Shown: one piece after another, positions 1,695 through 54,831 of the stretch
Layout: every line of letters starts with the position of its first letter
Position numbering within the stretch: position 1 is the stretch's first letter
Origin: Alphaproteobacteria bacterium
GTDB lineage: Bacteria; Pseudomonadota; Alphaproteobacteria; UBA8366
Direction: 5' to 3'
NCBI GenBank assembly: GCA_028281325.1
Contig: JANQKC010000014.1
Location: forward strand, 23,310-87,309
DNA length: 64,000 nucleotides
Translations under genes and position numbers: made by a program
Notes under the pieces: model-generated
Database searches by the model: none
What the model saw: the letters and a program-made list of their open reading frames with translations, nothing else
What the model was told of the DNA's origin: nothing

Positions 1695-1721
1695 CTCAAG
1701 TTTCCTCTGATGATCGTCGAG

Positions 1722-3113: not shown

Positions 3114-3124
3114 GGCTCAACTCC

Positions 3125-4516
3125 TCAATGGACCGCTTGCGTGGAAGACTCGGCGGAAGGCGACGTGCGCCGCTTGCGCGCACTCTCCTCGGCCGCCGCG
3201 TGGTGAGGTTCGTGGATTTCGACCATTTCGGGGAATTCCGGCAAACCGGCGAGTTGATCGGCCGTGGCCTTGCGTTCCATGCGTTGGATCGCGAAGTGCA
3301 TCCACAAGAGCGCGATGGCGACCAGGAGGAACAGCAGCATGAAGCAGCTCGTCCACACCCCGATCAGGTCGTTCATGATCCCGAAGCTGATTGGCAGGAA
3401 GAAGCCGCCCAATCCGCCGATCATGCCGACGAGACCGCCGACCGATCCCACATGGCCCGGGTAGTAGACGGGGATGTGCTTGTAGACGGCCGCCTTGCCG
3501 AGCGACATGAAGAACCCGAGCGCAACGGTCAGCGCCACGAAGATCGGCAGACTGATCGTCAGGTTGAACGTGATCGGCCCTTCAATGCCCTGGATCGTGT
3601 AGTCGGTCGCCGGATAGCTCAGGAAGAAGCAGATCACGACCGAGGCGAGAAAGGTCCAGTACATCACCGCCCGCGCGCCCCAGCGGTCCGACATATAGCC
3701 GCCCATCGCGCGGAAGATGCTGCCGGGCAATGCGTATGCCGCCGCCAACATGCCCGCGGTCTTGATGTCCAGCCCGTAGACGCCGACATAATAGCGCGGC
3801 AGCCACAGCGCCAACGCGACGAAGGCGCCGAACACGAAGAAGTAATAGAGCGAGAAACGCCAGACCTGCAGTTTCTTCAGCGGGGTCAGTTGCATGAAGG
3901 CGGAGGCCGGCTTTTCGCCCTTCGCCTTGCGCTCGGCGGTGACCGGGTCGTCCTTCGTGGTCAGGAAGAACAAGACGGCGGTGATCAGCAGCACAACCGC
4001 GTAGACCTGCGCCGTCGCCTCCCAACCCAGCGCGACCAACAGGAAAGGCGCGCCGAAATTCGTGACGGCGGCGCCGACATTGCCCATGCCGAAAATGCCG
4101 AGGGCGGTCCCTTGACGTTCTTTCTCATACCAGCGCGAGACGTAAGCGATGCCGACCGCGAAAGAACCGCCGGCAAGCCCGACGCCAAGCGCCGCGACGA
4201 GGAACATCTCGTAGGTCGATACGGTCGACAGCATCCACACCGCAACGGCGGTCAGCGCCATCACCGCGGTGTAAACGAGTCGCCCGCCATACTGATCGGT
4301 CCAGATGCCGAGAAAGATACGGCTGAGCGATCCCGTCAGAATCGGCGTCGCCACCAGAATGCCGAACTGCGTGTCGTTCAGACCTAGGTCTTGCTTAATC
4401 TTGACGCCGATAATCGAGAAGATCGTCCAAACGGCGAAGCACACCGTGAAAGCGAGTGTACTTGTGCCGAGAATGCGATTTTGTTGGGACGGTGTTACGC
4501 CATCCAGTCCATTCAT
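3125..4516 (-). CDS. narK: MFS nitrate/nitrite transporter, NarK1-like
   Basis: Paralogous NarK-type MFS (ATPILTGSLSRIFLGIWTDQYGGR, GLAGGSFAVGIAYVSRWY). The ORF track starts at GTG 4558. I prefer ATG 4516 (MNGLDGV...), which has a GAGGGGAAA RBS. Stop is 11 nt before the narK2-like start. Confidence 0.82.
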   Translation of the reverse strand: MNGLDGVTPSQQNRILGTSTLAFTVCFAVWTIFSIIGVKIKQDLGLNDTQFGILVATPILTGSLSRIFLGIWTDQYGGRLVYTAVMALTAVAVWMLSTVSTYEMFLVAALGVGLAGGSFAVGIAYVSRWYEKERQGTALGIFGMGNVGAAVTNFGAPFLLVALGWEATAQVYAVVLLITAVLFFLTTKDDPVTAERKAKGEKPASAFMQLTPLKKLQVWRFSLYYFFVFGAFVALALWLPRYYVGVYGLDIKTAGMLAAAYALPGSIFRAMGGYMSDRWGARAVMYWTFLASVVICFFLSYPATDYTIQGIEGPITFNLTISLPIFVALTVALGFFMSLGKAAVYKHIPVYYPGHVGSVGGLVGMIGGLGGFFLPISFGIMNDLIGVWTSCFMLLFLLVAIALLWMHFAIQRMERKATADQLAGLPEFPEMVEIHEPHHAAAEESARKRRTSPSAESSTQAVH

Positions 4517-4611
4517 CGTTCGTTTCCCCTCTGTCCCGCGCGCAATCGCGCGGGACACCGCTATTGGTCAGTGTGGTGGGGAAAGGGTCCGCTGCCGCGG
4601 CCGCGAACCGT

Positions 4612-4625
4612 TTGATTCAGATCAA
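4612..4625. promoter_or_regulatory. Perfect FNR/Dnr-type box TTGATTCAGATCAA
   Basis: Exact match to TTGAT-N4-ATCAA. Its centre is ~102 bp upstream of the narK1-like ATG 4516, which fits a class II FNR-type promoter for narK-narG with a ~60-nt leader. Confidence 0.7.
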
Positions 4626-4725
4626 AAGTCCGCGACGCGAAGGAAGATACAAGGGATGCTGCATCAGATGTCGCACCGTCACATAACAGTGGTATCGTAG
4701 CGATCTGACTTATGCGTGCCGCCAA

Positions 4726-4739
4726 TTGACAAAAATCAA
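4726..4739. promoter_or_regulatory. Second FNR-like box TTGACAAAAATCAA
   Basis: 13 of 14 match to TTGAT-N4-ATCAA. It ends 5 nt before the annotated ATG (4745) of the Crp/Fnr regulator. Confidence 0.5.
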
Positions 4740-4744
4740 ATAAG

Positions 4745-5479
4745 ATGCGGCGGATCGCTCAGACAAGGGAGGGCGGGTTTTTGCGTTCAGAGGATCTACC
4801 GGCTGTCCGCGATCTCGATCTATTCGCGGACATGGAGCCCGGACATTTCGAGGAGTTGATGCAGGTCGCCTACCTGCAACGCTTTCCACCGCAGGTGCAT
4901 CTCATCACCGAGGGCGATCCAGCCGACTTTCTGCACGTGGTCGTGGACGGAACGGTGGAGCTTTTCGCCACCGCCAACAATCGCGAGACCACGATGGCGG
5001 TGATCAACCCGGTCGCGACCTTCATCTTGGCGGCAGTGCTCAAAGATGCCGTCTACCTGATGTCCGCACGCACCATGACCGCCTCGCGGATCCTTTTGAT
5101 CCCGGCGGAAAACATCCGTGACATCTTCGAACGGGACGCCGCCTTCGCCCGGTCGATCGTGCAGGAACTGTCGGTGCGTTATCGGGACATGGTCAAGCTG
5201 CTCAAGAACCAGAAGCTGCGCACGTCGGTCGAGCGGCTGGCGAACTACCTGCTGCATGAACACACATGTCAGGGCGCGAACGGGGCACTCACCCTGCCGA
5301 CGGACAAGCGTACGCTGGCGACGCTACTCGGCATGACGCCGGAGAACCTCTCCCGCGCCTTCGGCACCCTCGGCCCCTATGGCGTATCGGTGGATGGCGC
5401 CCGGATCGCGCTGTCGAAACTCAACGACCTCGAAACACTGGCCAAACCCAACCCACTGACGGACGACCCAGCGACGTAA
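4745..5479 (+). CDS. Crp/Fnr-family transcription regulator lacking the Fe-S cysteine cluster (NarR/Dnr/NnrR class)
   Basis: 244 aa with a cNMP-binding-like beta-roll (ITEGDPADFLHVVVDGTVELF) and a C-terminal HTH containing the FNR-type E--SR recognition motif (TPENLSRAF). No N-terminal Cys cluster. Divergent from narK/narG, as narR is in Paracoccus. Confidence 0.8.
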   Translation: MRRIAQTREGGFLRSEDLPAVRDLDLFADMEPGHFEELMQVAYLQRFPPQVHLITEGDPADFLHVVVDGTVELFATANNRETTMAVINPVATFILAAVLKDAVYLMSARTMTASRILLIPAENIRDIFERDAAFARSIVQELSVRYRDMVKLLKNQKLRTSVERLANYLLHEHTCQGANGALTLPTDKRTLATLLGMTPENLSRAFGTLGPYGVSVDGARIALSKLNDLETLAKPNPLTDDPAT

Positions 5480-5583: not shown

Positions 5584-6015
5584 TCATTTGACGAACGCAA
5601 CTGGCCCGCGCGCCACGGGAACGACCAGCGCCGGACAGTCGTCGCGGGTTCCCGACGCGTCGGCGCAGGCCATCACATCGTTGAGCAGCACCCGGCCCAC
5701 GCGCGCGCAGGACAGCCCGTCGATGCCGAAGACCTTGAGGCTCGTCTTGCCGGCCGGCAGCGGCGCCGTCTCGACGGCGAGGCGTTTGGCCACGACTCCG
5801 TCCGCATCGAACATCACGAGGTCGAGCTTGAGCGTCTCGAAGGCGCTTTCCGTGCCATTCTCCAACACGATGTAGGCGCGGCACGCCTTGCCGTTCGGCT
5901 CCAGCTTGTTGAGTTCGACCTGGACATTGCCCGTCCTATCGCCCGCCGCCTGCGCGTCGGCCACGACCCCAAGAACCAGGAGCGCCGCAAGCCGCGGCAG
6001 AATTCGTTTGGTCAT
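5584..6015 (-). CDS. Small secreted protein of unknown function (signal peptide, 4 Cys)
   Basis: 143 aa. N-terminal signal peptide MTKRILPRLAALLVLGVVADAQA. ATGA start/stop overlap (6012-6015) with the upstream PepSY gene. I recognise no family with confidence. Confidence 0.6.
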   Translation of the reverse strand: MTKRILPRLAALLVLGVVADAQAAGDRTGNVQVELNKLEPNGKACRAYIVLENGTESAFETLKLDLVMFDADGVVAKRLAVETAPLPAGKTSLKVFGIDGLSCARVGRVLLNDVMACADASGTRDDCPALVVPVARGPVAFVK

Positions 6016-16442: not shown

Positions 16443-17900
16443 TCACGCCCTTAGCCGCGCGCTGACAACATCGGCAACGTCGCGCCAGACCGCTTGGCCG
16501 TCGGTATCGCCGCTCCGGCCAAGTGCCATGGCGCGATTCAAGGCAAACGAATGGGCGGTATCGCCATGTCGACCCAGCAGGCCGCGCGCAAACAACTCGA
16601 TATCCTCCCGCGGAACACACCAACGACCGCCACCCCCCGGCCCTTGACGGGAAGCTATCGCTGCCGGCGGCAGAGGCCAGGCCGCGGTGGCCGATGCGGG
16701 ACTTGCCGCCGGATCGCCCGCCCACTCCCCGGGATTTTCCCGCGCCGAAAGGACGAGACGTGACGACGGCAACCGCATGGTCACCGTGGTTCCCAGCCCA
16801 AGCTGGCTTTCCACCTTCAAATCGCCACCATGCAATTCAACCAATGATTTCGCCAACGGCAGCCCAAGCCCGGTGCCTTCCGACGTGGTGCTCGAATGCC
16901 GGCCGACCTGCCCAAACGGCTCCAACGCGGTGGCAATCTGTTCCGGCGCCATACCGACACCGCTGTCCGCGATCCTGATTTGCAGATCGCCGTCCGCAAT
17001 TTCCGCGATGCGTAACGAAATTCGACCACCCGGCGGCGTGAACCGCACCGCGTTGGCAAGAAGATTGACGAGGATTTGACGCAGTTTGACGTCATCCACC
17101 ATCAGCGACGGGATAACCGCCGGCAGCACCACGGACAGATCGATGAATTTCTTCGCCGCTTCCGTCTTGATCATCCGCATCGCTGCATCAATGACCGTGT
17201 CGAGACGCACGATGCGGTCGGTCAATTCGATCCGGCCGGCCTCGATCTTCGCCATATCGAGCACTTCATTGATCAGCGCAAGCAAGTGTCCGCCGCTTTC
17301 GTGAATATCGCGCGCATAGGCCACATAACGATCATTCCCCGCCGGACCGAAGACCTCTTTTCGTATCACCTCGGAAAACCCGATGATGGCATTCAGCGGG
17401 GTCCGCAATTCATGACTCATATTGGCGAGAAATTGCGATTTCGTCCGATGCGCCTGCTCGGCGGCGCGCCAAGCCTTCTGGAGTTCGGCGGCGCGGGACT
17501 TCATATGTTCGATGGTGAACTGCAGCAACGAAAAGGGCGTACCGACCCCGATATACCGGCCGTTTTCCGTAACGATAAAGCCCTTTAAAAGGGCGCCGGG
17601 CTTTTCGGACACGATGCGATTGTTCAGGTCCGTCAGTTCCTCGTTGACGTCGACGATCAACGGCGCCTTGTCCATCAAACTGCGAATCGATTTCTTATCG
17701 TATAGCGACCGTCCAAAGAGATGCGACAGCGCCACCAGAAACTCATGCCGGTTGACGATGCCGATGGGCCGGTCCCGGTCGACGACCGCATAGGACAGCG
17801 TATCCGGATCGTCGATGAAGCGGTCATAGACCTCGACGCAACGCAGATCCGGTGACATCGGCGGCAGCGGTAGCGTTAAATTCTTGAGATGACCCGACAT
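16443..17900 (-). CDS. Soluble sensor histidine kinase: CBS-like N-terminal domain, HisKA, HATPase_c, and an unassigned ~100-aa C-terminal extension
   Basis: H-box FLANMSHELRTPLNAIIGF, N-box LANAVRFTPPGG, G-boxes DSGVGM and GTGLGLPL. No TM segment. Start is probably ATG 17900 (MSGHLKNL); the track uses TTG 17945. No receiver domain or adjacent response regulator. Confidence 0.85.
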   Translation of the reverse strand: MSGHLKNLTLPLPPMSPDLRCVEVYDRFIDDPDTLSYAVVDRDRPIGIVNRHEFLVALSHLFGRSLYDKKSIRSLMDKAPLIVDVNEELTDLNNRIVSEKPGALLKGFIVTENGRYIGVGTPFSLLQFTIEHMKSRAAELQKAWRAAEQAHRTKSQFLANMSHELRTPLNAIIGFSEVIRKEVFGPAGNDRYVAYARDIHESGGHLLALINEVLDMAKIEAGRIELTDRIVRLDTVIDAAMRMIKTEAAKKFIDLSVVLPAVIPSLMVDDVKLRQILVNLLANAVRFTPPGGRISLRIAEIADGDLQIRIADSGVGMAPEQIATALEPFGQVGRHSSTTSEGTGLGLPLAKSLVELHGGDLKVESQLGLGTTVTMRLPSSRLVLSARENPGEWAGDPAASPASATAAWPLPPAAIASRQGPGGGGRWCVPREDIELFARGLLGRHGDTAHSFALNRAMALGRSGDTDGQAVWRDVADVVSARLRA

Positions 17901-24217: not shown

Positions 24218-25870
<1,653 letters not shown>

Positions 25871-36559: not shown

Positions 36560-37684
36560 ATGGCGCAGGTAACCGAAGCCGAAATTCTGGATCGGTTGAA
36601 GAGTGTTGTCGAACCCGATTCCGGCAAGGACATCGTGACCTTGGGAATGATTTCAGGGCTCGTCGTGAAAGACGGTAACGTCGGATTCTCGATTGAGGTC
36701 GCGCCGGAAAAAGGCCCGGCCTCCGAACCGCTGCGGCAAACCGCGGAGAAAGCGATCCACGAACTGCCCGGCGTCGTGTCCGCAACGGTGGTGCTGACGG
36801 CGCATCGCCCGCAAGGTCAAAGCGCCCCGCCCCCGCAAGCGCCGCCGCAACCGCAGCAGCAACAGCAAGCGAAGCCCCTCGCCCCGGGCGTTCAACACAT
36901 CGTAGCGGTGGCCAGCGGAAAGGGCGGCGTCGGAAAATCGACCACCGCGGTCAACCTCGCCATGGGTCTTGCCGCGGGCGGTCGCACGGTCGGGCTGCTC
37001 GACGCCGATATTTACGGACCGTCGCAGCCGCGCATGATGGGCATCTCGGGCAAACCGTCCTCGGCGGATGGGAAGGTACTGGAACCCATGGAGAACTACG
37101 GCGTCAAGGTCATGTCCATGGGGTTCCTCGTCGATGAAGAAACGCCGATGATCTGGCGCGGCCCGATGGTGATGAGCGCCTTGCAACAGATGCTCCGCGA
37201 CGTGAACTGGGGCGACCTTGACGTGATGATCGTCGACATGCCGCCGGGCACCGGCGACGCGCAACTGACCATGGCGCAGCAGGTTCCGCTGGCCGGCGCG
37301 GTGATCGTATCGACCCCGCAGGACATCGCCCTGCTGGATGCGCGCAAGGGCTTGAACATGTTTCGCAAGGTCGACGTGCCGGTCCTCGGCTTCATCGAAA
37401 ACATGAGCTATTTCCTATGCCCAAGCTGCGGCCACCAAGCGGACATTTTCGGCCATGGCGGCGCCCGCGAAGAAGCCGAGCGGCTCGGCATCGAGTTTTT
37501 GGGCGAAATACCGTTGCATCTGGACATTCGCGAAACGTCGGACGGCGGCCAGCCCATCGTCACCAGCCGCCCGGACTCCGATCATGCTGCGGCCTATCGC
37601 GCCATCGCCGATCGGATTTGGGAAAAATTGAGTGCCGCTGAAGGAACCGAAGCACGCAAAGCGCCGAAATTCGTCATACAATAA
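36560..37684 (+). CDS. apbC: Mrp/ApbC/NBP35-family Fe-S cluster carrier ATPase
   Basis: N-terminal DUF59-like domain, a Pro/Gln-rich linker, deviant Walker A ([11 protein letters not shown]) and the CPSCG motif. Confidence 0.9.
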
Positions 37685-42260: not shown

Positions 42261-42764
42261 CTAACCGCCGGGCCCAATCCGCTCCAAGACCTTGAAGGAA
42301 ACAGGCGCGCTGTGGATGTCGTTCCGGCGGTCGGAAGACGCGGTTCGCCAATCGGCCGGATCGAGATCCGGAAAGAGCGTGTCCCCGTCGACAGCCTCGT
42401 GCACCCGCGTCAGATAGATTCGCTGCGCCAGCGGCAGCGCGGCCCGATACAGATCGCCGCCGCCGATGATCATGATTTCTTCCGCCCCCTCGCCGGTGGC
42501 GCGATCCAGCGCCTCGGGCAGCGACCGCACGGCCTCTACGCCCTCCCATCGCCGCGACGGATCGCGGGTGACGACGATGTTCAGGCGCCCGGGCAACGGC
42601 CGGCCAATCGACTCGTAGGTGCGACGGCCCATGACGATCGGCTTGCCCATCGTCACCGCCTTGAAATGCTTGAGGTCGTCCGGGATGTGCCACGGCAGAT
42701 CGCCATCCTTGCCGATGACGTTGTTCTCGGCCATCGCGACGACCAGCGATACGCGGGGGGGCAT
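42261..42764 (-). CDS. folA: Dihydrofolate reductase
   Basis: The real gene is the last 167 codons of track ORF 42261..43385, starting at ATG 42764: MPPRVSLVVAMAENNVIGKDGDLPWHIPDDLKHFKAVTMGKPIVMGRRTYESIG. It begins 5 nt after the thyA stop. Confidence 0.93.
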   Translation of the reverse strand: MPPRVSLVVAMAENNVIGKDGDLPWHIPDDLKHFKAVTMGKPIVMGRRTYESIGRPLPGRLNIVVTRDPSRRWEGVEAVRSLPEALDRATGEGAEEIMIIGGGDLYRAALPLAQRIYLTRVHEAVDGDTLFPDLDPADWRTASSDRRNDIHSAPVSFKVLERIGPGG

Positions 42765-42769
42765 CCCGC

Positions 42770-43564
42770 CTAGACCGCCACCGCGGCGGGAATATGCGGA
42801 TGGAAGCGGTAATTCGCCAGCGAGAAATCCTCGAACCGGAAAGCGAAGATATCCTTCACGTCCGGATTCAATGTCATCGTGGGCAACGGATACGGCTCGC
42901 GCTGAAGCTGCAGGTCCGCCTGCTCCAGGTGATTCAAGTAGAGATGCGCATCGCCGAAGGTATGGATGAACTCGCCCGGTTCCAGCCCGGTCGCCTGCGC
43001 CATCATCATGGTCAGCAACGCATAGGATGCGATGTTGAACGGTACGCCTAGGAAGACGTCGGCGCTGCGCTGATAGAGCTGGCAGGACAGCCGTCCCTCC
43101 GCCACGTAGAACTGGAACAGGCAATGACAGGGCGGCAGGGCCATGCTGTCCACATCGGCGACGTTCCAGGCGCTGACGATATGCCGGCGCGAGTCCGGGC
43201 TCCGCTTGATCTGATCCACCAGCGCGGTGATCTGATCGACCGACCGGCCGTCCGGCGTCGGCCAGGAACGCCATTGATGGCCGTAGACCGGCCCCAGGTC
43301 GCCGGTCTCGTCCGCCCACTCGTCCCAGATCGACACGCCGTTTTCCTGCAGGTATCGGACATTCGTATCGCCGCGCAAGAACCACAGCAGTTCGTAAACA
43401 ATCGACTTCAAATGCAGCCGCTTGGTCGTGACCATGGGAAAGCCGTCGCGTAGGTCGTAGCGGTTCTGATAGCCGAAAACGCTCAGCGTTCCGGTACCGG
43501 TGCGGTCGGTCTTGCGCGCGCCGGTGTCACGGATGTGTCGTAGGAGGTCGTGATATTGTCGCAT
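42770..43564 (-). CDS. thyA: Thymidylate synthase
   Basis: 264 aa. [33 protein letters not shown] and the active-site LPPCH are present. Confidence 0.97.
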
Positions 43565-44229
43565 GTCGTCAAGTCTACCCGCCGTCGGGTTCCGTTTGAA
43601 GAGTCAAGCATGCGGAGCGGCGGATTCCTCCGTGCCGTCCACAACGCCGTGAGGGTGCAAAGCGCCAATCCCGCGACATAGCCGGCGAAATGCGCCTCGG
43701 TGACCGACGGCAGACTCGATAGCGGCAACACCGCACCGGCAGACACGCTTTCTATCGCAATCTTGCCGAGCCCGCCTACAGCCAACGCCGGATACAACCA
43801 ATCGCCGGAGCCGCGCCATTGCCCGTACACGGCGGCAATGAACAACGTGTTGAGAACACCGGAGAATCCACAATAGCGTTCGAGCCCCGGCAGATTGAGC
43901 CACAGCATCGCATCGATCACGACGATGCCGAACGACACGAGAAGAAGCAGCGTTTTGATGCCGAGTCGCTGCAGCGATTCCAAGACACCGCCGAGAAGGG
44001 TCAAAGCCAGCAGGTTCGCCGCCAGATGCCCGATATCGCCGTGCACCAAATGTCCGGTCACGAGACGCCACCACTCCCCATCCACGATGCCCGCACGCTC
44101 GTACATCAACAGACCCGGCTGCGGACCCAAGGCGGCAAATAGGCCGAGCATAACCGCCGCCAAACCGGCGGTGAACCAGGGCGGACGCACGCCGCCCTGG
44201 TTCCGGTCCCGGATCAGCCGGCCGATCAT
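43483..44229 (-). CDS. rrtA: Rhomboid-family intramembrane serine protease, rhombosortase-type
   Basis: 248 aa. Rhomboid motifs [22 protein letters not shown], catalytic GFSGV (GxSG) and AHFAGYVAG (His). ATGA overlap with the upstream GlyGly-CTERM gene. Its 3' end overlaps the thyA start by 82 nt. Confidence 0.8.
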
Positions 44230-46403
44230 TCCCGATCTCCGTCCCGGCGGCGGCTGAGATAGACCGCCACCGAGAAGGCGAACAGCAGCGCCAACCCCAA
44301 CAGACCGGTCGAGCCGCCACCGCCGCCCGAACCGCCGCTGTAGCTGGGCCGTGTCGTCTTGAACATCGGCGCCTTCGTGTCGACCCGCGTAACGCGAACC
44401 GGCGCCTGGGCCCGTTGCTTCGCGGCCGCGGTTTCCGTTGCGCGCCGGGCCTGGTTGCGCCGCTCGATGCCGTGCTTGGCGAAGACCTCATCCCGCACCA
44501 CGACCATCGACGTGTAGGGCGTGACCAATCCGTATTCCACGCCAAGCTCGGTCACGACCTGCTTGCGGTCGCTGTTCTCGCCGAAATCGTCGATGTCCTG
44601 CAGTTGCGCCTCGATCGCCGAGAAGGCCCACAAGCGTTCGATTTCCGGGTTCAAGTCGGCAGTCCTCGGAAAATCGAACCGGGTGGTGTAGGTCGTCGGC
44701 GTGCCGGAGATCAGCCCGGACAGCGTTACTTCCGCCTCGCCGTCGCCCCGGTACTTGCCGAACACGACGAGCTGTTCACCTCGATACAGGCTGCCCAGCC
44801 GTTCGGGCGTCAGATCGCTGGTGCGAACGCCGCTGATCTCGATCCCGACCTTGTGCAGCGCTTGATGGGTCACCTTCGACGTCGCGGACAGAACCGCGCC
44901 CACGATGTCGTCGCTGTTCGAGATGCTGATCGACGTACCGCCCGACGCCCGCGTCATCCCCGTCAGTAGGGTCCGGTTCGCACTGTTGCCCATAACGAAG
45001 GTGAACAGTCTAACGTCCGCCTTGCGCACCAGTTTGAGGAACGCCTTCTTGCGGGTCTCGCCCACGTTGGCGACGCCATCCGTCACCAATAGGATCGCCG
45101 TGGTGCGGTCCGCGTCGACGAAGTTGAGGCCGAGCTTGAGGCCGTCGAACAGGTTGGTGCCCCGGTTCGGCTGCACGGCGTCCAGCAGCGCGACCGCCTT
45201 CTTCACATTCTCCGGCGTGGCGGGCAGAAACCCGGATGTCAATTCCGATGCCGTCTGGTCGAACAACACGATCCGGAACCGGTCGACCGGGCGCAGCTTC
45301 GAAACGCCGCGGGCCACGCCTTCGGTCAGGGTATGGAACTTCCGTTTCATCGACCCCGACTTGTCGAGCACAAAGACCCAATCCTTCCCCTCGACGATGG
45401 GCTTCAGGTCGTCGCCGGGCGTCAACACCATCATGAAGGTCCCCGGCTTGTCCGGATCCGGGCGATACGCCACCAAATCCACGCTGCCCGGGAGGTTATC
45501 CGCCTGACGCCAATAGACGACGATATCCGTATCGAGACGGAACGACGATGTCGCCGCACGCGGCGCCGCCCGGACCGGCGTCACGGCCTCGCCTTCGTCG
45601 ATCGTGTGGGTAGGCCGCGTCGGCACGGCGATCACCTTGTCGTCGCGATCCGGGTTACCATCGACAACGGCTGGCGATGGCGCAATCGATTTGCCGCTGC
45701 GGTTGTCCATACGGACGCGCCATTCCCGGTCCGACACCTGCGTGACGACCGCCTGCGGATGTTTCGGCAACCGCAGCGCCGCGACCGGATAGGACGAGCG
45801 CAGTTGAAGGTCGAAACTGAACCGGCCCTCCACCTTCTCGTTCGCCGTCCAGAAGGCGAGCTTCGCGTCGTCGACGCCCCCCTCCTCCAAGGGATAGACG
45901 TAGCGGCCGATGCTGGTGTCGATATGCGCCGGCTGGATATAGGTCAGGCGTACCCGCACGTCCTTCCCCGCCCGCACCGGCGTCACCGAGATGTCGAAGG
46001 TCTTGTGCGAATCCTGCTCGGTCAGGGCCGCCTCGCGGCCGGCCTTCTTCTCCTCTTCGTAGACAGCGCGCGCCTTCTTCTTGGCCAGCACCTCGCCGGT
46101 CACCGGTTTCCCGTCGATCCAATAGGTGAAACCCGACACCGCCGCCTTTTTCGGCACCGGAAATGAATAGATCGCCTCGAAATCCTTGCCATGCGGATTC
46201 CGGAACACCTGCTCCACGGCGGTGATCGCATAGCCGTCTTCGACCGTCACCCGGACCGCCTGATCCTGAACCACCAGCGGCGGCGTGCTCCCATCCGCCG
46301 GACTCAACAACCCGGCGGCGGAGGAATCCGCCGCAAAAACCGCTGCGCCCGTCAGGATTCCGACAGAGACCAGCGCATACCGCCACATTCGAGAAAGCAT
46401 CAT
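44226..46403 (-). CDS. Secreted VIT + von Willebrand factor A domain protein with GlyGly-CTERM sorting signal
   Basis: Start ATG 46403 (AAGGAAA RBS; the track uses TTG 46433). Signal peptide, VIT domain, vWA domain with MIDAS DKSGSM. C-terminus [39 protein letters not shown] consists of a Gly run, a TM helix and a basic cluster. Confidence 0.85.
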   Translation of the reverse strand: MMLSRMWRYALVSVGILTGAAVFAADSSAAGLLSPADGSTPPLVVQDQAVRVTVEDGYAITAVEQVFRNPHGKDFEAIYSFPVPKKAAVSGFTYWIDGKPVTGEVLAKKKARAVYEEEKKAGREAALTEQDSHKTFDISVTPVRAGKDVRVRLTYIQPAHIDTSIGRYVYPLEEGGVDDAKLAFWTANEKVEGRFSFDLQLRSSYPVAALRLPKHPQAVVTQVSDREWRVRMDNRSGKSIAPSPAVVDGNPDRDDKVIAVPTRPTHTIDEGEAVTPVRAAPRAATSSFRLDTDIVVYWRQADNLPGSVDLVAYRPDPDKPGTFMMVLTPGDDLKPIVEGKDWVFVLDKSGSMKRKFHTLTEGVARGVSKLRPVDRFRIVLFDQTASELTSGFLPATPENVKKAVALLDAVQPNRGTNLFDGLKLGLNFVDADRTTAILLVTDGVANVGETRKKAFLKLVRKADVRLFTFVMGNSANRTLLTGMTRASGGTSISISNSDDIVGAVLSATSKVTHQALHKVGIEISGVRTSDLTPERLGSLYRGEQLVVFGKYRGDGEAEVTLSGLISGTPTTYTTRFDFPRTADLNPEIERLWAFSAIEAQLQDIDDFGENSDRKQVVTELGVEYGLVTPYTSMVVVRDEVFAKHGIERRNQARRATETAAAKQRAQAPVRVTRVDTKAPMFKTTRPSYSGGSGGGGGSTGLLGLALLFAFSVAVYLSRRRDGDRE

Positions 46404-47618: not shown

Positions 47619-48458
47619 ATGGCCCAAGACAGTTTGCAATCGAAAGCGGAAGCGTTCCACGCGCTCCACACCGACCCCAAACTACTCGTCCTGCCGAACG
47701 CCTGGGACGTTGCATCCGCGATCATCCTGGCCGAAGCCGGCTTCCCGGCCATCGCCTCGACCAGCGCGGGCGTCGCGTTCTCGCGTGGATATTCGGACGG
47801 CGAGGTGATCGGCCGCGACGAAATGCTCGACGAGGTGGCCAAGATGACCGCACGGGTCGACATCCCCGTCACCGCCGACCTGGAAGCGGGTTACGGCGCC
47901 AACCCGGAAGACGTCGCGGAGACGGTGCGTCGCGCCATCGACGCGGGCGCGGTCGGTGCGAATATCGAGGACGGTACGAAGGATGGCGATGAACCGCTGT
48001 TCGATTTCGCGCTCAGCGTCGAACGCATCCAGGCGGGCCGTGAGGCGGCGGACGAAGCGGGCATTCCCTTCGTCATCAATGCCCGCACCGACGGCTTCAT
48101 CCGGGCCGGCCGCGACGCCGTGGTGTTGGACGATGCGATCGCCCGCGCCAATGCCTATTACCAAGCCGGCGCCCGCAGCCTGTTCATTCCGGGGGTCGCC
48201 GACGGCCAGACGATCGGCCGCCTCGCCGCCGATATCGACGGACCGATCAACATCCTCGCCGGTCCGAAGACGCCGCCGGTCGCCGAACTGGAAAGTCTCG
48301 GCGTCGCCCGGCTCAGCGTTGGCGGCAGCATCGCCCGCGCCGCCTATACGCTGGCGCGCCAAGCAGCCGAGGAACTGCGGGATGCCGGCACCTACCGGTA
48401 TACCGAAAACACCTACAGCAATCGCGAGCTGAACAACCTGCTCGACCCGGATCGTTGA
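47619..48458 (+). CDS. Isocitrate lyase / PEP mutase superfamily protein (2-methylisocitrate lyase or carboxyvinyl-carboxyphosphonate phosphorylmutase-like)
   Basis: 279 aa. LVLPNAWDVASAIILAEAGFPAIASTSAG, DLEAGYG and NIEDG are family motifs. Confidence 0.8.
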   Translation: MAQDSLQSKAEAFHALHTDPKLLVLPNAWDVASAIILAEAGFPAIASTSAGVAFSRGYSDGEVIGRDEMLDEVAKMTARVDIPVTADLEAGYGANPEDVAETVRRAIDAGAVGANIEDGTKDGDEPLFDFALSVERIQAGREAADEAGIPFVINARTDGFIRAGRDAVVLDDAIARANAYYQAGARSLFIPGVADGQTIGRLAADIDGPINILAGPKTPPVAELESLGVARLSVGGSIARAAYTLARQAAEELRDAGTYRYTENTYSNRELNNLLDPDR

Positions 48459-48507
48459 CCATCTGCGTCCGACCGGCCCAAATACCTGTAAGGAGAGGAA
48501 ACCGACC

Positions 48508-49245
48508 ATGAGCAACGTGACCATCGTTACCGGCGGCAGCCGGGGCATCGGCGCCGCGACCGCACAGCTCTGCGGCGACCATGGGCACGCCGTTTGCGTC
48601 GCCTACCGGTCGGAAGCCGATCTGGCGAACGCCGTCGTCGCCGACATCGAGAAGGCCGGCGGCAAGGCGATCGCCGTCCAAGCCGACACCGCGGTCGAAG
48701 CCGACATCACGAAGATGTTCGACACCGCGGCCGAAACGCTCGGCCCGATCACGGGTCTGGTCAACAACGCCGGCATTCACGGTCCGCGCGGGCGGCTGGA
48801 AGCGCTCGGCGCGGACGACATTAACGCGGTGCTCCAGGTCAACGTGGCCGGGTATTTCCTCTGCGCCCGCGAGGCGGTGCGCCGGATGTCGACGACGCAT
48901 GGCGGCGCCGGCGGTTCGATCGTGAACATCTCCTCCGGATCGGCAAACATCGGATCGCCCGGCGAGGGCGTGCTCTATGCCGCCTCCAAGGGCGCGGTCA
49001 ACTCGCTCACCATCGGCCTGGCGCAAGAGGTCGCCGGCGAAGGCATCCGCGTGAACACGGTCAGCCCGGGCCTCACCGTCCCCGGCATGCCGCCGCAGGA
49101 CAAGGTCGACGCGATTGCGTCGAAGCTGCCGATGGGTCGCGCCGGCCGTCCCGAGGAAATCGCCGAGGCGGTCTGCTGGCTGCTGTCGGACAAGGCGTCC
49201 TATACATCGGCGGCCAATGTCCGGGTCGGCGGCGGACGCCCTTGA
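48508..49245 (+). CDS. Short-chain dehydrogenase/reductase (SDR)
   Basis: 245 aa. TGGSRGIG cofactor motif, NNAG, catalytic YAASK. AAGGAGAGG RBS. Confidence 0.88.
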
Positions 49246-49306
49246 CGCGCCCGGCTTTTTGCCGACTCTTACGCCCGCGCATAATCGGTGTCATGGAAAG
49301 GGTACG

Positions 49307-50923
49307 ATGAGCGAGCAACAATACGAATACCATCCGATGTTCCCCCTCGGCGCAGACAAGACCGAGTATCGGAAATTGACGGGCGACCATGTCGGCACCG
49401 CCACCTTCAACGGCGAAGAAATCCTGACCGTCGATCCGCAGGCGCTGACCGAGTTGACGACCGAAGCCTTCAAGGACATCAGCCATCTGCTCCGGCCGGG
49501 CCATCTCAAACAGCTTGCGAGTATCCTCGACGACCCGGAAGCCTCGGACAACGACCGCTTTGTCGCCTATGACCTGCTCAAGAACGCCAACATCGCCGCC
49601 GGCGGCATCCTGCCCATGTGCCAGGACACCGGCACCGCGATCATCATGGGCAAGAAGGGGCAGAAGGTCTGGACCGGCGGCGGCGACGAAGAAGCCCTCT
49701 CGAAAGGCGTGTTCGACAGCTATACCCAATTGAACCTGCGATACAGCCAAGTCTCGCCGGTGACGATGTATGAGGAAACCAACACGCGCAACAACCTGCC
49801 GGCGCAGGTCGACCTCTACGCCGACGAGGGCGACGCCTATAAATTCCTGTTCGTCGCCAAGGGCGGCGGCTCGGCCAACAAAAGCTTCTTGTTTCAGTCG
49901 ACGCCGTCGACGCTGACGCCGGAACGGCTGGTCGCCTTTCTCGACGAAAAAATCCGCACCCTCGGCACCGCCGCCTGCCCGCCCTATCACTTGGGCATCG
50001 TGATCGGCGGCACGTCGGCGGAACAGAACCTCAAGACGGTCAAGCTGGCGAGTTGCCGTTACTACGACAACCTGCCGACCAAAGGCGGCGACAAGGGCCA
50101 GGCCTTTCGCGATGTTGAATTCGAGCAGGAAGTCCTCCGACTGACGCAGCAGATGGGGATCGGCGCGCAGTTCGGCGGCAAGTATTTCTGCCATGACGTG
50201 CGCGTCATCCGCCTGCCGCGGCATGGAGCAAGCCTGCCCATCGGTCTGGGCGTCTCCTGCTCGGCGGACCGCCAGATCCTGGGCAAGATCACCCGTGACG
50301 GCGTGTTCCTGGAAAAACTGGAAACCGACCCGGCCAAATACATGCCGGACGTGACGGACCAGGATCTGGAAGGCGATGTGGTCGATATCGACCTGCAACG
50401 GCCCATGTCGGATATTCTCGGCACGCTGACCCAACATCCGGTGAAGACGCGCCTTTCGCTGACCGGCACGATCATCGTCGCGCGCGATGCCGCCCATGCG
50501 CGCTTGGAAGCGATGCTGGACAAGGGCGAGGACCTGCCGAAATACTTCAAGGACCATCCGATCTATTACGCCGGACCGGCCAAGACGCCGGAGGGGTACG
50601 CCTCGGGATCGTTCGGCCCGACCACGGCGGGACGCATGGACGCCTTCGTCGAACGTTTCCAAGCGGCCGGCGGATCGATGGTCATGTTGGCCAAGGGCAA
50701 CCGCTCCGACGTGGTGCGGCAGTCCTGCCAAGCGCATGGCGGCTTCTATCTCGGGTCGATCGGCGGACCGGCGGCACGCCTCGCCCTCGACTGCATCAAG
50801 AAGGTCGAGTGTATCGAGTTCGAAGACCTCGGCATGGAAGCGATCTGGCGTATCGAGGTGGAGAACTTCCCGGCCTTCATCGTGACGGACGACAAAGGGA
50901 ACGACTTCTTCCGCGACCTTTAG
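49307..50923 (+). CDS. fumA: Class I (Fe-S dependent) fumarate hydratase, FumA/FumB type
   Basis: Start ATG 49307. [25 protein letters not shown]...[30 protein letters not shown]...AKGGGSANK is colinear with E. coli FumA as I remember it. Confidence 0.93.
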
Positions 50924-50980
50924 CCGGACCTCAAACCAACGACGGTTGCATTCCGCGCCGCGCTGCGTTGAGATCACGGG

Positions 50981-51355
50981 ATGCCGGTAAACGCCGAATT
51001 CGCCGCTTTTCTGCACGACCAGCTCGCGCCCTTTGGCCCGGTCACGATCCGGTCGATGTTCGGCGGGGCCGGACTGTTCCGCGACGGCGTCATGTTCGGC
51101 CTGATCGCGTATGACACGCTGTACTTCAAGACCGGCGACGCAAACCGGGCCGACTATGAAGACGCCGGCATGGACCCTTTCACCTACGAAGGCAAATCGA
51201 AACCGGTGGCCATGTCCTACCATCAGGTGCCAGCGGACCTATTGGAAGACCCCGACGAACTGAGCGAATGGGCGCGCCGAGCTTTCGATATAGCGCGGGA
51301 ATCGAAGAAGGCGAAGAAGCCCAAGCGACCCAAGAAACGGAGCAAGACGACATGA
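50981..51355 (+). CDS. TfoX N-terminal-domain protein with Lys-rich tail
   Basis: 124 aa. [30 protein letters not shown] is the TfoX_N signature. C-terminus [20 protein letters not shown] overlap with fumC. Confidence 0.75.
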
Positions 51356-52755
51356 CCGACACGCCCGAAACACGGACGGAACGCGACAGCATGGGCGAGA
51401 TAGCGGTCCCTGCGAACCGGCTGTGGGGCGCACAGACGCAGCGCAGCAAGGAGCTGTTCGCGATCGGCACGGAACGCATGCCGCAACGCTTGATCCGCGC
51501 CTTCGGGTATCAGAAGAAGGCCGCCGCGTTGGCCAATCAGGCATCGGGCGATATCGATGCACGGATCGGGGCGGCCATCGTCGCCGCTTGCGATGCCGTT
51601 ATAGCAGGCGATCTCGACGATCATTTCCCGCTCGTCGTCTGGCAGACCGGCTCCGGCACGCAGACCAACATGAACCTGAACGAGGTGATCGCGAACCACG
51701 CCATCGAGACACTGGGCGGCGAAGCCGGCTCCAAGGAACCGGTCCATCCGAACGACCACGTCAACCGTGCGCAATCGTCGAATGACAGTTTTCCGACCGC
51801 GATGCATATCGCCGCCGCACTCGAAACACGCGACTGCCTGCTGCCGGGCCTCGACATCCTCAAAACGGCGCTGGAGGCGAAAGCCGAGGAATTCCGGAGC
51901 ATCGTCAAGATCGGGCGGACACATTTGCAGGATGCAACGCCGCTGACCCTCGGTCAGGAGTTTTCCGGCTATACGGCGCAGCTGTCGAACGGCATCGATC
52001 GCGTCAAGAACGCCCTGCCTCACCTGCACCGGGTCGCGCAAGGCGGTACGGCCGTGGGGTCCGGCCTCAACGCGCCGGAAGGATTCGACCAAGCCTTCGC
52101 CGATCAGCTATCGGCGTTGACCGGCATTGCGTTCACACCCGCAGAAAACAAGTTCGAGGCCATGGCGGCGCATGACGCCTTGGTCGAATTGTCCGGCGCA
52201 ACGAATACGATCGCGGCATCGTTGATGAAGATCGCGAACGACATCCGTCTGCTCGGGTCCGGCCCGCGCAGCGGTCTCGGCGAACTGCTGTTGCCGGAAA
52301 ACGAACCCGGCTCGTCGATCATGCCGGGCAAGGTCAACCCGACGCAATGCGAGGCGATGACGCAAGTCTGCGCCCAGGTCATGGGCAATCATGTCGCCGT
52401 CACGATCGCCGGATCGAATGGCCACTTGGAACTGAACACGTTCAAGCCGGTGATCATCTACAATCTGTTGCAGTCGCTTCGCCTGCTCGGCGACGCAAGC
52501 ATCAGTTTCGCGAAGAATTGCGTCGACGGGATTGCCGCCAACCAGGATCGGATCGACACGCTGCTCCGCCAATCCCTCATGCTGGTCACGGCGCTCAACC
52601 CGCATATCGGTTATGATAACGCGGCAAAGATAGCCAAACGCGCGCATGCCGAGGGCACCACCTTGAAGGAGGCCGCCGTCGCGTCCGGTTTGGTGACGGA
52701 AGAACAGTTCGACACATGGGTCGACCCGGCATCGATGACCGGCGAAAAAGCCTAG
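51352..52755 (+). CDS. fumC: Class II fumarate hydratase
   Basis: Start ATG 51352. [23 protein letters not shown], and the [11 protein letters not shown] signature. Confidence 0.96.
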
Positions 52756-52786: not shown

Positions 52787-54058
52787 CTAGTCGACGATGC
52801 TTTCACGCTTCAGTTCGATCGCGGCCAAAATCCGGAAGATCACGCCTTCTGGCACCGATTTGGACTGCAATGTCTCTTCCATGATGGCCTGGCAGGTGTT
52901 GAAGTTGTCGTCGTCCATGCCCTTTTTCGGCACCAGCCATGAATGACCGGACGGCACAGCGCCATCCGCCGGCCCGCCAAGCGCCGCCGTCAGGCAGACC
53001 TGCAACGCATCCATCTGCGCATCCATATCCGCGCCATCGTAGAAGTCAGCGAGGCCCTTGTCGGCGAGAACCCTCTCGTAGAACGCTTCGACGATACCGG
53101 TTAGAACGCCTGCGCCGCCAAGATCCTCGAAGATGCTGGCATCCGGGCCCGAACTGCTGGGGGCGGCCGGCGCTTCGGCGGACGCCGAACTCGGTTCGGG
53201 CGCGGCCGCAGGCGGCGTTCTGTCAACGTTGGTCGACCCCGCCGCGGCATCCCTCTCCTTGCTATCCTTCTCCTTATCGTGCAGCGCGATCACAGTCGGC
53301 GACGCATCATCGGCCTCCGGCTCGGCGTCGGCTCCTGCTTCCTCGTCGTCGATGGCGGATTTGCTGTTTTGCGGTGGGGTAGCGGCCGGCTTCTTCGTCA
53401 GTTTCTTCTTCAACGCCTTTTTCGATCTACGCGGCGTCGCTTTCTTTGGTTCGGCATCGGCCTCCGCGTCGCCGTCGGCTTCATCCATCTCCGCCTCGGA
53501 CACGTCGGCCAGTTTCTTCTTGGCGGCGATCCGTTTCTGCGCATCGGGCGCTTCCTTCGGGCGTGCGATAAAGCGGATCTGCGGCGTTTGCGCAATCGTC
53601 TCGGGATCGAGGATTTGGTCGACATCGAGAACCGCCAACAACTCCTCGTCCATTCGATAAATGCCGGTGCAAAGCTGCTTGAGGACCGGATCCAAGGTCG
53701 CGGGAACCGCCTCGAAATCGCCCTGATCGAGCAACCGGACCTCGCCGATTTCATCGACCAGAATCGTATAGAGATCGCCCTTGTATTCGACCGTCACGCC
53801 CATGCGACTCTCGGAATCATCCGTCCTGCCCAAAATGCGGCGTAGGTTGATGACGGTTACGATCCGGCCGCGCAAGTTCATGACACCGGAGATTGCGGAC
53901 GGCGCCAAGGGAACCTGCGTGATGGTGTGCGTTTCGACGATGTCTTGTACGCTCAGGATCGACAATCCGAAATGCTGGTTATCGACCCTCATGGTCACCA
54001 ACTGTTCTTCGGCCCGGTCGGAAACGAGCTTTTCCTCAACAACCGCTAATTCACTCAT
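52787..54058 (-). CDS. CheW-like domain protein fused to a C-terminal group-I truncated haemoglobin (2-on-2 globin) domain
   Basis: Start ATG 54058 (the track uses TTG 54097). The CheW-like domain is encoded by ~53600-54001. It is followed by a ~135-aa K/E/D/A/P low-complexity linker. The C-terminal 116 aa (nt 52790-53137) read SIFEDLGGAGVLTGIVEAFYERVLADKGLADFYDGADMDAQMDALQVCLTAALGGP...GHSW... and align by eye with trHbN-type globins. Confidence 0.8.
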   Translation of the reverse strand: MSELAVVEEKLVSDRAEEQLVTMRVDNQHFGLSILSVQDIVETHTITQVPLAPSAISGVMNLRGRIVTVINLRRILGRTDDSESRMGVTVEYKGDLYTILVDEIGEVRLLDQGDFEAVPATLDPVLKQLCTGIYRMDEELLAVLDVDQILDPETIAQTPQIRFIARPKEAPDAQKRIAAKKKLADVSEAEMDEADGDAEADAEPKKATPRRSKKALKKKLTKKPAATPPQNSKSAIDDEEAGADAEPEADDASPTVIALHDKEKDSKERDAAAGSTNVDRTPPAAAPEPSSASAEAPAAPSSSGPDASIFEDLGGAGVLTGIVEAFYERVLADKGLADFYDGADMDAQMDALQVCLTAALGGPADGAVPSGHSWLVPKKGMDDDNFNTCQAIMEETLQSKSVPEGVIFRILAAIELKRESIVD

Positions 54059-54207
54059 CGAAAATCCCCGCGAGAAATCGCTATTCTTATGGCTCAATGC
54101 CCATCTTCTAAGGGAATTTCTTTAACGTCTCCTTTACGCCGCGAAGGGATTACACCGACCGAATACTCCCTTACGCGGCATTAACCATAACGACGGGAAA
54201 CCCCGAA

Positions 54208-54831
54208 ATGCCTCCGACCCTTGTTTTCGACGGACCGCGAAACGCGGCCGCAACGGTTGTTCTGACCCACGGCGCCGGCGCCGGCATCGAAACGCCCTTT
54301 GTGCAAGCCTTTGCGCAGGGTCTTGCGGCGCAAAACCTACGGGTCGGCCGGTTTGAGTTCCCCTACATGACGAAGGTTCGCGAAACCGGACGACGCCGTC
54401 CACCCGACCGGCAAGCGATCCTACTGCAAGCGTGGGAAGAGGTCATCGACGGCCTGGAGACCCGGCCGCTCGTGGTCGGCGGCAAATCCCTCGGCGGCAG
54501 AATTGCGAGCATGCTGGCCGATGAAAAACGGGTTAACGGGCTGATTTGCCTGGGCTACCCTTTCCATCCACCCGGCAAGCCGGACCGGTTGCGTACCCAA
54601 CATCTTCTGTCGTTGAAAACGCCGACCTTGATCTGCCAAGGAAGCCGAGACCCCTTCGGCACGGCTGAGGAGGTGCCGCGCTATGGATTGCCGCCCAGCA
54701 TTCGGCTGCACTGGCTCGAAGATGGCGATCACAGTTTCAAGCCCCGAAAGCGGTCGGGCCGTACCAGCGAACAGAATTGGCAAGAAGCCATTCAAGCGAC
54801 TGTCAATTTCATCAATGACCTTAATCGTTAA
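54208..54831 (+). CDS. Alpha/beta-hydrolase-fold protein (KANL3/Tex30-like predicted esterase)
   Basis: 207 aa. VVLTHGAGAG, nucleophile elbow GGKSLGGR, and late GSRDPFG and DGDHS. Confidence 0.75.
   Translation: MPPTLVFDGPRNAAATVVLTHGAGAGIETPFVQAFAQGLAAQNLRVGRFEFPYMTKVRETGRRRPPDRQAILLQAWEEVIDGLETRPLVVGGKSLGGRIASMLADEKRVNGLICLGYPFHPPGKPDRLRTQHLLSLKTPTLICQGSRDPFGTAEEVPRYGLPPSIRLHWLEDGDHSFKPRKRSGRTSEQNWQEAIQATVNFINDLNR

Follow-up and report, generated by a model that had tools for sequence, protein, structure and literature searches.

A CheW-like domain tethered to a group-I truncated haemoglobin: a candidate gas-sensing chemotaxis coupling protein in an alphaproteobacterium

The well-studied haem inputs to bacterial taxis, namely HemAT, Aer2-type PAS-haem proteins and H-NOX-linked systems, all act, to our knowledge, through receptors or separate sensors. 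As far as we know, CheW is seen as a passive coupling scaffold, with CheV as its only well-known decorated form, and truncated haemoglobins (trHbs) are usually stand-alone proteins that handle O2 or NO. Here, we describe a gene in which the two families are joined. It lies on the minus strand of a 64,000-nucleotide stretch of DNA from an alphaproteobacterium of the UBA8366 lineage (assembly GCA_028281325.1, contig JANQKC010000014.1, positions 23,310 to 87,309), hereafter referred to as the window, and the coordinates of its parts are collected in Table 1. A preliminary description of the window had read the gene as one uninterrupted 423-codon frame joining an N-terminal CheW-like domain, a charged Ala/Pro-rich disordered linker and a C-terminal domain that aligns over its full length with group-I 2-on-2 globins. 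It had also proposed a search with truncated-globin profiles, a structure prediction and a survey of genomes for the same architecture. The domain reading was borne out by the analyses described below, which corrected one assignment in the haem pocket.

The physical joining of a haem globin to the chemotaxis machinery is shared with HemAT and the other globin-coupled sensors. In HemAT, however, an N-terminal 3-on-3 sensor globin of the S family is attached to a receptor by a helical, structured connection, whereas the window protein carries a C-terminal 2-on-2 globin on a coupling protein by means of a disordered tether. The protein falls outside the definition of a globin-coupled sensor, as its globin belongs to the T family and is C-terminal, and Pfam detected no MCPsignal, GGDEF or kinase domain in it. 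CheV resembles it as a coupling module that brings a regulatory accessory domain into the array (PMC12691637). The accessory of CheV is a phosphorylatable REC domain on a short linker, in contrast to a haem-type globin on a long intrinsically disordered region (IDR), and the window protein differs from CheV in giving no Response_reg match in Pfam. ParP of Vibrio and Pseudomonas combines an array-intercalating CheW-like module, a long flexible linker and a second interaction module in a similar way (PMC5706961). The order in ParP, in which an N-terminal ParC-interaction domain is followed by a Pro-rich linker and a C-terminal CheW-like AIF domain, is reversed here, and the second module is a haem-type globin. 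With its CheW module at the N-terminus and no parC/parA-type neighbour in the conserved locus, the window protein is also distinct from ParP as defined. That a CheW-like module can bring an accessory domain into arrays is thus already documented for ParP (PMC5706961) and CheV (PMC12691637).

Compared with stand-alone CheW proteins (PF01584; E. coli 2ho9 and T. maritima 1k0s), the N-terminal 150 residues are alike and comprise a full-length domain with the NLRG-R motif and the hydrophobic groove, while the window protein differs in possessing a 270-residue C-terminal extension (IDR and globin) and in being encoded away from che operons, in a housekeeping locus. The globin shares the 2-on-2 fold, the GG hinges, Phe B9-Tyr B10, Gln E7 and His F8 with the group-I trHbs (HbN, GlbN, THB1 and the Tetrahymena and Paramecium proteins). 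It is distinguished from them by its fusion behind CheW, a shorter pre-F loop, Leu/Met at E11, Tyr at CD1, Trp at F10, and Cys in place of the canonical Val at G8. A 2020 review of globins lists bacterial chimeric T-globins for T2/O and T3/P only (PMC7475203). A survey of CheW-like architectures, in which 16 of 111 Pfam architectures were analysed, never mentions globins, and a phylogenomic survey of trHbs never mentions fusions. No description or characterised example of a CheW-trHb fusion was found in the literature, in line with the preliminary description, which named none. Several members of the family have been named automatically by JGI as [quoted passage not shown], and the NCBI name is CheW. 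The architecture is therefore visible to automatic annotation, but appears to be uncharacterised.

The ORF listing contains the gene as a single unbroken frame, which starts at the ATG at 54058 (423 aa) or, at most, at a TTG at 54097, in agreement with the frame first described. The plus-strand translation of 52787-54058 is full of stops. The N-terminal sequence MSELA is kept in homologues, and a GGGGA element is located 6 nt upstream of the ATG, so that the ATG at 54058 is the likely start; the alternative in-frame TTG has no support from homologues. The same ORF is intact in four GTDB genomes, in all of which it ends with ...KRESIVD and a stop codon. A frameshift or merged-gene artefact was considered and rejected, since the single ORF is intact across independent assemblies. 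The intergenic region upstream of the gene contains no match to the sigma-70 consensus, and no promoter or terminator consensus around the gene rose above shuffle expectation.

The N-terminal part is a full-length CheW domain. Pfam PF01584 matches residues 19-151 with an E-value of 9.2e-27 and 93.8 bits (cut-off 23.5) over profile positions 1-135 of 138, and phmmer returned full-length matches to the solved CheW structures 2qdl, 1k0s and 2ho9 (5e-14 to 4e-11). In NCBIfam, CheW is the one domain recognised, weakly, and no globin match was obtained. A structural model was judged on the family member P0093, a 47%-identical homologue of the window protein. In its AlphaFold2 (AF2) model, residues 18-146 are all-beta with a predicted local distance difference test (pLDDT) score above 90, and they adopt the two-subdomain beta-barrel fold of CheW. 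The module contains a NLRGRIV motif that is invariant in the family and holds Arg63, Gly58 and Gly64. Arg63 aligns with what we take to be Arg62 of E. coli CheW, whose structure 2ho9 was matched independently. The presumed counterparts of Arg62, Gly57, Gly63, Ile33, Val36, Ile39 and Val108 are all kept, and Glu38 is presumably replaced conservatively by Asp. The E. coli-type interface positions (Arg62, Gly57 and Gly63, with Ile33, Val36, Ile39 and Val108 in the groove) are invariant across the fusion family, in which the CheW module is unusually conserved (65-94% identity). Outside the fusions, the module finds its nearest counterpart (47% identity) in a CheW encoded by a complete cheA-cheW-cheY-cheB-cheR operon of another alphaproteobacterial metagenome-assembled genome (MAG), and the motifs NLRGRIVT and GIYRMDEEL are common to both. 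In a low-GC alphaproteobacterial MAG, dnaA adjoins an operon of this composition (L005:5018-12831), whose cheA encodes a REC hybrid of 987 aa, and an AsmA-like gene follows the operon, which echoes the AsmA neighbour at the fusion locus.

The C-terminal part is a group-I trHb. The Pfam profile PF01152 (Bac_globin) scores 31-34 bits against the window protein, above the cut-off of 21, but covers only positions 1-67 of the 121 in the model. In phmmer searches of PDB sequences, the C-terminal 120 residues align over their whole length with group-I trHbs, with E-values of 4.5e-10 for C. reinhardtii THB1, 7e-10 for Synechocystis GlbN, 8e-9 for Tetrahymena trHb and 6.8e-8 for M. tuberculosis HbN; group-II trHbs score just ~1e-3. 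The identity to solved group-I trHbs is 26-30%. The alignment of the whole domain with solved trHbs dispels the uncertainty that the partial Pfam coverage had left over the haem-binding half. AF2, run on the globin domain with a 38-sequence family alignment, produced a confident 2-on-2 globin model (pLDDT 88.6; predicted template-modelling score (pTM) 0.84). Foldseek placed this model at TM 0.81-0.85 to 1dlw, 2gkm, 6cii and 3aq5 (trHbN, P. caudatum trHb and THB1). Its top 22 matches are all group-I trHbs (TM 0.73-0.85), with group II ranked lower.

The globin keeps its predicted haem-binding residues, His F8, Tyr B10 and Gln E7. The pocket comprises the GG hinge at 314-315, Phe326 (B9), Tyr327 (B10), Tyr340 (CD1), Gln348 (E7), Leu352 (E11), His372 (F8), Trp374 (F10) and Cys389 (G8), with Ala at E10; helix E ends with the LGGP motif, and the AB hinge Gly314-Gly315 is invariant in 120 of 120 homologues. 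The Phe-Tyr pair that had been placed at B9-B10 is thus found there, and Tyr327 aligns with Tyr B10 of the solved trHbs. His372, in the SGHSW motif already singled out as the proximal region, is in register with the His of "asHrrLi" in THB1 and of "eaHkeLv" in GlbN, which we take to be the proximal F8 ligand (GlbN His70). The correction concerns the distal side. The preliminary description had assigned the Gln of ALQV to E11, but that residue is E12; the conserved Gln is Gln348 in DAQMD, which aligns with Gln E7 of solved trHbs, and E11 is Leu352, so the assignment was four positions off. An apolar E11, such as Leu352, falls within the variation of clade N (PMC4720485). Since E10 is neither His nor Lys, one would not expect hexacoordination of the bis-histidyl or Lys kind known from GlbN or THB1. 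Cys389 aligns with the Val of "FdaV" in GlbN and is a hallmark of the subfamily described below. A degenerate, haem-less globin, suspected from the Pfam coverage of 1-67, was rejected for the window protein in view of the full-length PDB alignments, the register of His F8 and the conservation within the subfamily.

The two domains are connected by a linker that fits its first description as charged, Ala/Pro-rich and disordered. It spans 150 residues (~157-306) and contains 33 Ala, 18 Lys, 17 Pro, 16 Asp, 14 Glu and 13 Ser. It is unconserved and gap-rich in the family alignment, and its length ranges from 31 to 217 residues among family members. In the AF2 model of P0093, which has a short linker, the linker shows pLDDT values below 50, while both domains exceed 90. 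No packing or docking between the domains is supported in that model (pTM 0.54). Directly after the CheW domain, Pro159 in a conserved TP motif ("ETIAxTP") is invariant in the family and is accompanied by a basic patch that family members likewise share. A Lys/Ala/Pro-rich stretch, KKALKKKLTKKPAATPP, is also present in the linker of the window protein; that it binds a polyanion or DNA is a matter of speculation.

The architecture recurs widely. A search with the full protein returned 240 database clusters, of which the best 120 all have E-values below 1e-58. Precomputed annotations of both CheW and Bac_globin are present in 97 of these best 120, so that at least 97 clusters contain the fusion, as the proposed survey had sought; one cluster is identical to the window protein. 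The named sources of the fusion clusters are all metagenome-assembled Alphaproteobacteria or Pseudomonadota. After clustering at 50%, about a dozen representatives of the full-length architecture remain among 1.84 billion proteins. In a search of representatives, the top scores (P0127-P0136) were very long, multi-unit truncated haemoglobins unrelated to CheW, among them P0127 with 1882 aa and 13 globin stretches. Among the 120 homologues, the GG hinge is conserved in 120, Phe B9 in 111, Tyr B10 in 95, Gln E7 in 113 and His F8 in 110.

Two globin subfamilies can be distinguished among the fusions, a canonical trHbN type and a window type. The canonical subfamily shows the pattern …GGPxxYxGRxLRxAHxxLVxxKGLxxxHF…, with His F8 in 42/42, Tyr B10 in 41/42 and Val G8 in 38/42 sequences. 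In the 64 sequences of the window type, Gln E7 (64/64), His F8 (62/64), Trp F10 (64/64) and Cys G8 (61/64) are nearly invariant, Tyr B10 is present in 43/64, and the pre-F loop is three residues shorter. All window-type globins in the family set are joined to a CheW module; the four that lack the motif are N-terminally truncated or variant. A globin-only search (121-aa query, 172 candidates scored), which missed more than 100 known members, gave a single match, the ordinary HbN-like protein P0369. At the same syntenic locus, P0022 (L009:10001-11572; 523 aa) encodes CheW followed by a canonical trHbN and then a window-type globin ("GHEWLVSKKG...RESIVD"). The presence of both types in tandem suggests an origin of the window-type globin by internal duplication. 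Selection is purifying on the two folded domains and relaxed on the linker: comparison with four orthologues yielded dN/dS values of ~0.03 (CheW), 0.08-0.13 (globin) and 0.19-0.35 (linker), which are approximate because dS is high. At ~82% identity of the CheW modules, the globins are ~46% and the linkers ~23% identical.

The gene belongs to a conserved housekeeping locus. It is convergent with fumC and divergent from Abhydrolase_11, and the order AsmA - RHH_4 - Abhydrolase_11 - [gene] - fumarase - SspB - ThyA/DHFR is found again around family members whose identity ranges from 100% to 37%, which indicates vertical inheritance in this locus. A profile search also detected proteins in which the same, highly conserved CheW module is followed not by a globin but by 300-400 aa of acidic disorder with a Lys-rich end. 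This acidic-tail group (P0149, P0150, P0157, P0160 and P0288; L016:10001-11662) occupies the same locus, has a terminal tail rich in Lys, Ala and Pro, and displays the conserved islands …MTDLNAYE…, …ERW.EVL.EKAR… and …GWWNKLRGK…. A search with an acidic-tail protein led to cultured Aestuariispiraceae (Rhodospirillales), namely Aestuariispira ectoiniformans, A. insulae, Curvivirga aplysinae and Hwanghaeella grinnelliae. Their proteins of 364-380 aa match the whole fusion profile, although no globin is detected by Pfam. The C-terminal domain is homologous to the globin, but His F8 is replaced by Leu (Hwanghaeella) or Tyr (Aestuariispira and Curvivirga) and Gln E7 is lost. P0138 (L015:10001-11101), P0363, P0357, P0339 and P0352 are, judging from these substitutions, probably haem-less pseudo-globins. 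P0079 and P0108 have Gln at F8. Since the pseudo-globin (CP062788.1) and acidic-tail (CP070634.1) forms hold the same position between AsmA/RHH_4 and SspB, they are positional orthologues of the fusion gene. The family looks like a constant CheW anchor with an exchangeable tethered payload, which may be a trHbN, tandem globins, a window-type globin, a pseudo-globin or an acidic tail, and the window gene is the haem-competent branch of this family of positional orthologues in Rhodospirillales-like Alphaproteobacteria.

We tentatively favour the reading that the gene encodes a haemoglobin tethered to the chemosensory array and acting there as a tethered sensor, with O2/NO sensing at the scaffold level as a plausible candidate function. 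According to this reading, the CheW module would insert into the receptor/CheA baseplate like any CheW, and the flexible tether would confine the haem domain to within tens of nanometres of the array, where its local concentration would be high. A change in what the haem binds (O2, NO or CO) or in its redox state (ferrous or ferric), possibly with the G8 thiol, may then alter the contacts of the globin with array components in trans, and the changed contacts would bias the control of the CheA kinase, so that a signal for aerotaxis, NO-taxis or energy-taxis would enter through the coupling protein. Transmission would occur by tethered, reversible docking and not by allostery through the linker. 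Such allostery is unlikely because the linker is disordered, unconserved and highly variable in length, and because AF2 supports no docking; the predicted lack of interdomain docking is also the ground on which the mechanism in trans is favoured. The near-invariant pocket signature (Gln E7, His F8, Trp F10 and Cys G8) argues that haem matters in the window branch. In A. ectoiniformans, an MCP gene located 10 kb upstream of the locus counts in favour of a role in the array. It is more doubtful whether, as a wider claim, input to an array can enter through the coupling protein, with the haem/thiol globin of the window branch as an O2, NO or redox switch that docks reversibly and sets the kinase bias.

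Several observations weigh against the tethered sensor. No che genes adjoin the gene or its orthologues in the 11 distinct neighbourhoods inspected. The existence of pseudo-globin and globin-less orthologues implies that the core role of the family is not haem-dependent and is not gas sensing as such. Within the window type itself, Tyr B10 is replaced by Leu, Phe or Ile in 21 of the 64 members. Low O2 off-rates are predicted for ~70% of the trHb cases analysed across the family (PMC4720485), which fits scavenging or enzymology better than fast reversible sensing. In addition, the orthologue-bearing genus Aestuariispira reportedly differs from Kiloniella in motility (PMC7179689).

The CheW module might merely address the globin to the array or the pole, where it would work as an NO dioxygenase or an O2/NO buffer without any signal to CheA, protecting or conditioning local respiration or those array components that are sensitive to redox state (haem, FAD or Fe-S receptors). 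We consider such an array-localised enzyme or scavenger unlikely. In its favour, the best sequence and structure matches are of the trHbN type and include M. tuberculosis HbN, which is an NO dioxygenase; Tyr B10 and Gln E7 are present in the pocket; the respiratory nitrate reduction of the organism is a source of NO; and a long, unconserved tether without docking fits a simple localisation device. [quoted passage not shown] A reductase partner is neither fused nor adjacent, however, and the gene is unlinked to nar or nor genes (48 kb away). The conservation of CheW (dN/dS 0.03; 65-94% identity) and the His-less orthologues further suggest that the main job lies in the array and not in catalysis. 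The His-less and the globin-less orthologues favour, for the family as a whole, a structural or positioning adaptor resembling ParP, in which the CheW module sits in the array, the tail links it to the pole, the nucleoid or a polyanion, and the globin is chiefly an interaction domain whose haem, where kept, is accessory or makes the link conditional. At the same locus elsewhere, CheW is followed by a pseudo-globin without His F8 and Gln E7 or by an acidic IDR (300-400 aa) with a Lys-rich tail, and the conserved basic patch after the CheW domain and the Lys/Ala/Pro-rich stretch of the window linker point the same way, as does the precedent of ParP with its CheW-like array-integration domain, linker and partner-binding domain (PMC5706961). 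Near-invariant haem ligands, the pocket signature and a globin dN/dS of ~0.1 are nevertheless hard to explain if haem is irrelevant, and no ParC/ParA-type partner is found nearby; a Mrp/NUBPL-type P-loop ATPase (36560-37684) lies 15 kb off and outside the conserved neighbourhood. For the window protein, we rate this adaptor as unlikely too, slightly more so than the scavenger.

The remaining explanations are less probable still. Service in a non-motility chemosensory pathway, of the alternative cellular function (ACF) or type IV pilus (Tfp) type, or moonlighting in a non-Che complex independently of CheW, is improbable. It would suit the orphan position of the gene in a housekeeping locus in every genome inspected and the reported difference in motility between an orthologue-bearing genus and its motile relative. 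Against it, the CheW module most resembles the CheW encoded within a classical cheAWYBR operon and retains the residues of the canonical interface, and all CheW-like domains known to us act in Che-type arrays. An artefact, whether a frameshift or assembly merger of two genes or a chance or decaying resemblance to a globin, could be suspected because the Pfam globin model aligned over the first half only and NCBIfam gave no globin match. This is extremely improbable in view of both domains in 97 of the best 120 clusters, intact ORFs in four GTDB genomes, the full-length alignment to solved trHbs, the confident 2-on-2 model and the purifying selection on the globin.

A scan of all ORFs predicted in the window revealed no che, MCP or flagellar genes, which upholds the description of the gene as an orphan without cheA, cheY or MCP genes within 64 kb. 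Respiratory nitrate reduction, which had been adduced as a fitting context, is encoded in the window by narG and NarK-type genes, but its connection with the fusion gene does not go beyond co-occurrence ~48 kb apart. A functional link to the nar genes was therefore discarded: the conserved neighbourhood never includes nar, and the sole tie is the shared 64-kb window. After nar, the window continues with a TonB/FecR/ECF set, mreB-mreC-PBP2-rodA, housekeeping genes, and sspB, class-I fumarase, tfoX and fumC, and it ends with the CheW-globin gene, Abhydrolase_11, RHH_4, asmA and a sulfatase. At 49115-52755, a class-I (Fe-S) fumarase gene, a gene for a TfoX_N-domain protein and the class-II fumarase gene fumC lie side by side in the same orientation. 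A TfoX-like gene flanked by fumarase genes on both sides is unusual, and its stop codon apparently overlaps the likely fumC start by 4 nt, to judge from orthologous gene lengths in the locus L008. Six predicted ORFs have no Pfam match: 24548-25603 (+), 47682-48548 (-), 5584-6015 (-), 17422-17793 (+), 42312-42773 (+) and 43895-44257 (+). The ORF at 47682-48548 may be a wrong-strand shadow, and orthologous loci carry PEP_mutase and SDR genes between sspB and the fumarase.

Table 1. Features of the CheW-globin gene and of the window, with coordinates counted from the first nucleotide of the window.
Feature	Coordinates	Strand	Basis or remarks
Complete CDS, CheW - disordered linker - group-I truncated haemoglobin	52787..54058	-	423 codons + stop
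CheW-like domain, residues 19-151	53606..54004	-	Pfam PF01584 (E 9.2e-27), PDB CheW matches, dN/dS 0.03
Disordered tether, residues 157-306	53141..53590	-	Composition, length variation, lack of conservation, dN/dS 0.19-0.35
Group-I (N-type) 2-on-2 globin, residues 307-423	52790..53140	-	PF01152, phmmer, AF2, Foldseek, conservation, dN/dS
Codon of His372, predicted proximal (F8) haem ligand	52943..52945	-	Alignment with THB1 and Synechocystis GlbN
Codon of Cys389, distal-pocket G8	52892..52894	-	Subfamily hallmark; aligned with Val of GlbN "FdaV"
Divergent intergenic region, 149 bp, presumed promoter and GGGGA Shine-Dalgarno-like element	54059..54207	.	Shared with Abhydrolase_11 gene (54208-54831, +)
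narG (partial, minus strand; window begins inside), two NarK-type major facilitator superfamily (MFS) transporters and divergent Fnr/Crp-family regulator (4745-5479)	3-5479		

The fusion could put O2 or NO chemistry directly on the chemotaxis machinery, and a conserved CheW with a tethered haem-competent globin would allow modulation at the scaffold level, or the delivery of cargo to arrays, to be put to the test. The orthologue series supplies natural controls at one locus, with a haem-competent globin, a pseudo-globin or no globin behind the same anchor. The fusion would surprise specialists in chemotaxis, even though its role may prove mundane; if the protein is merely a localised NO scavenger or a structural adaptor, it would be a modest addition to both families. 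If the sensing role is true, the protein would be the first chimeric truncated haemoglobin of group I in bacteria that serves in signalling, and it would extend truncated haemoglobins to a signalling architecture that is unlisted for the bacterial group-I members (PMC7475203).

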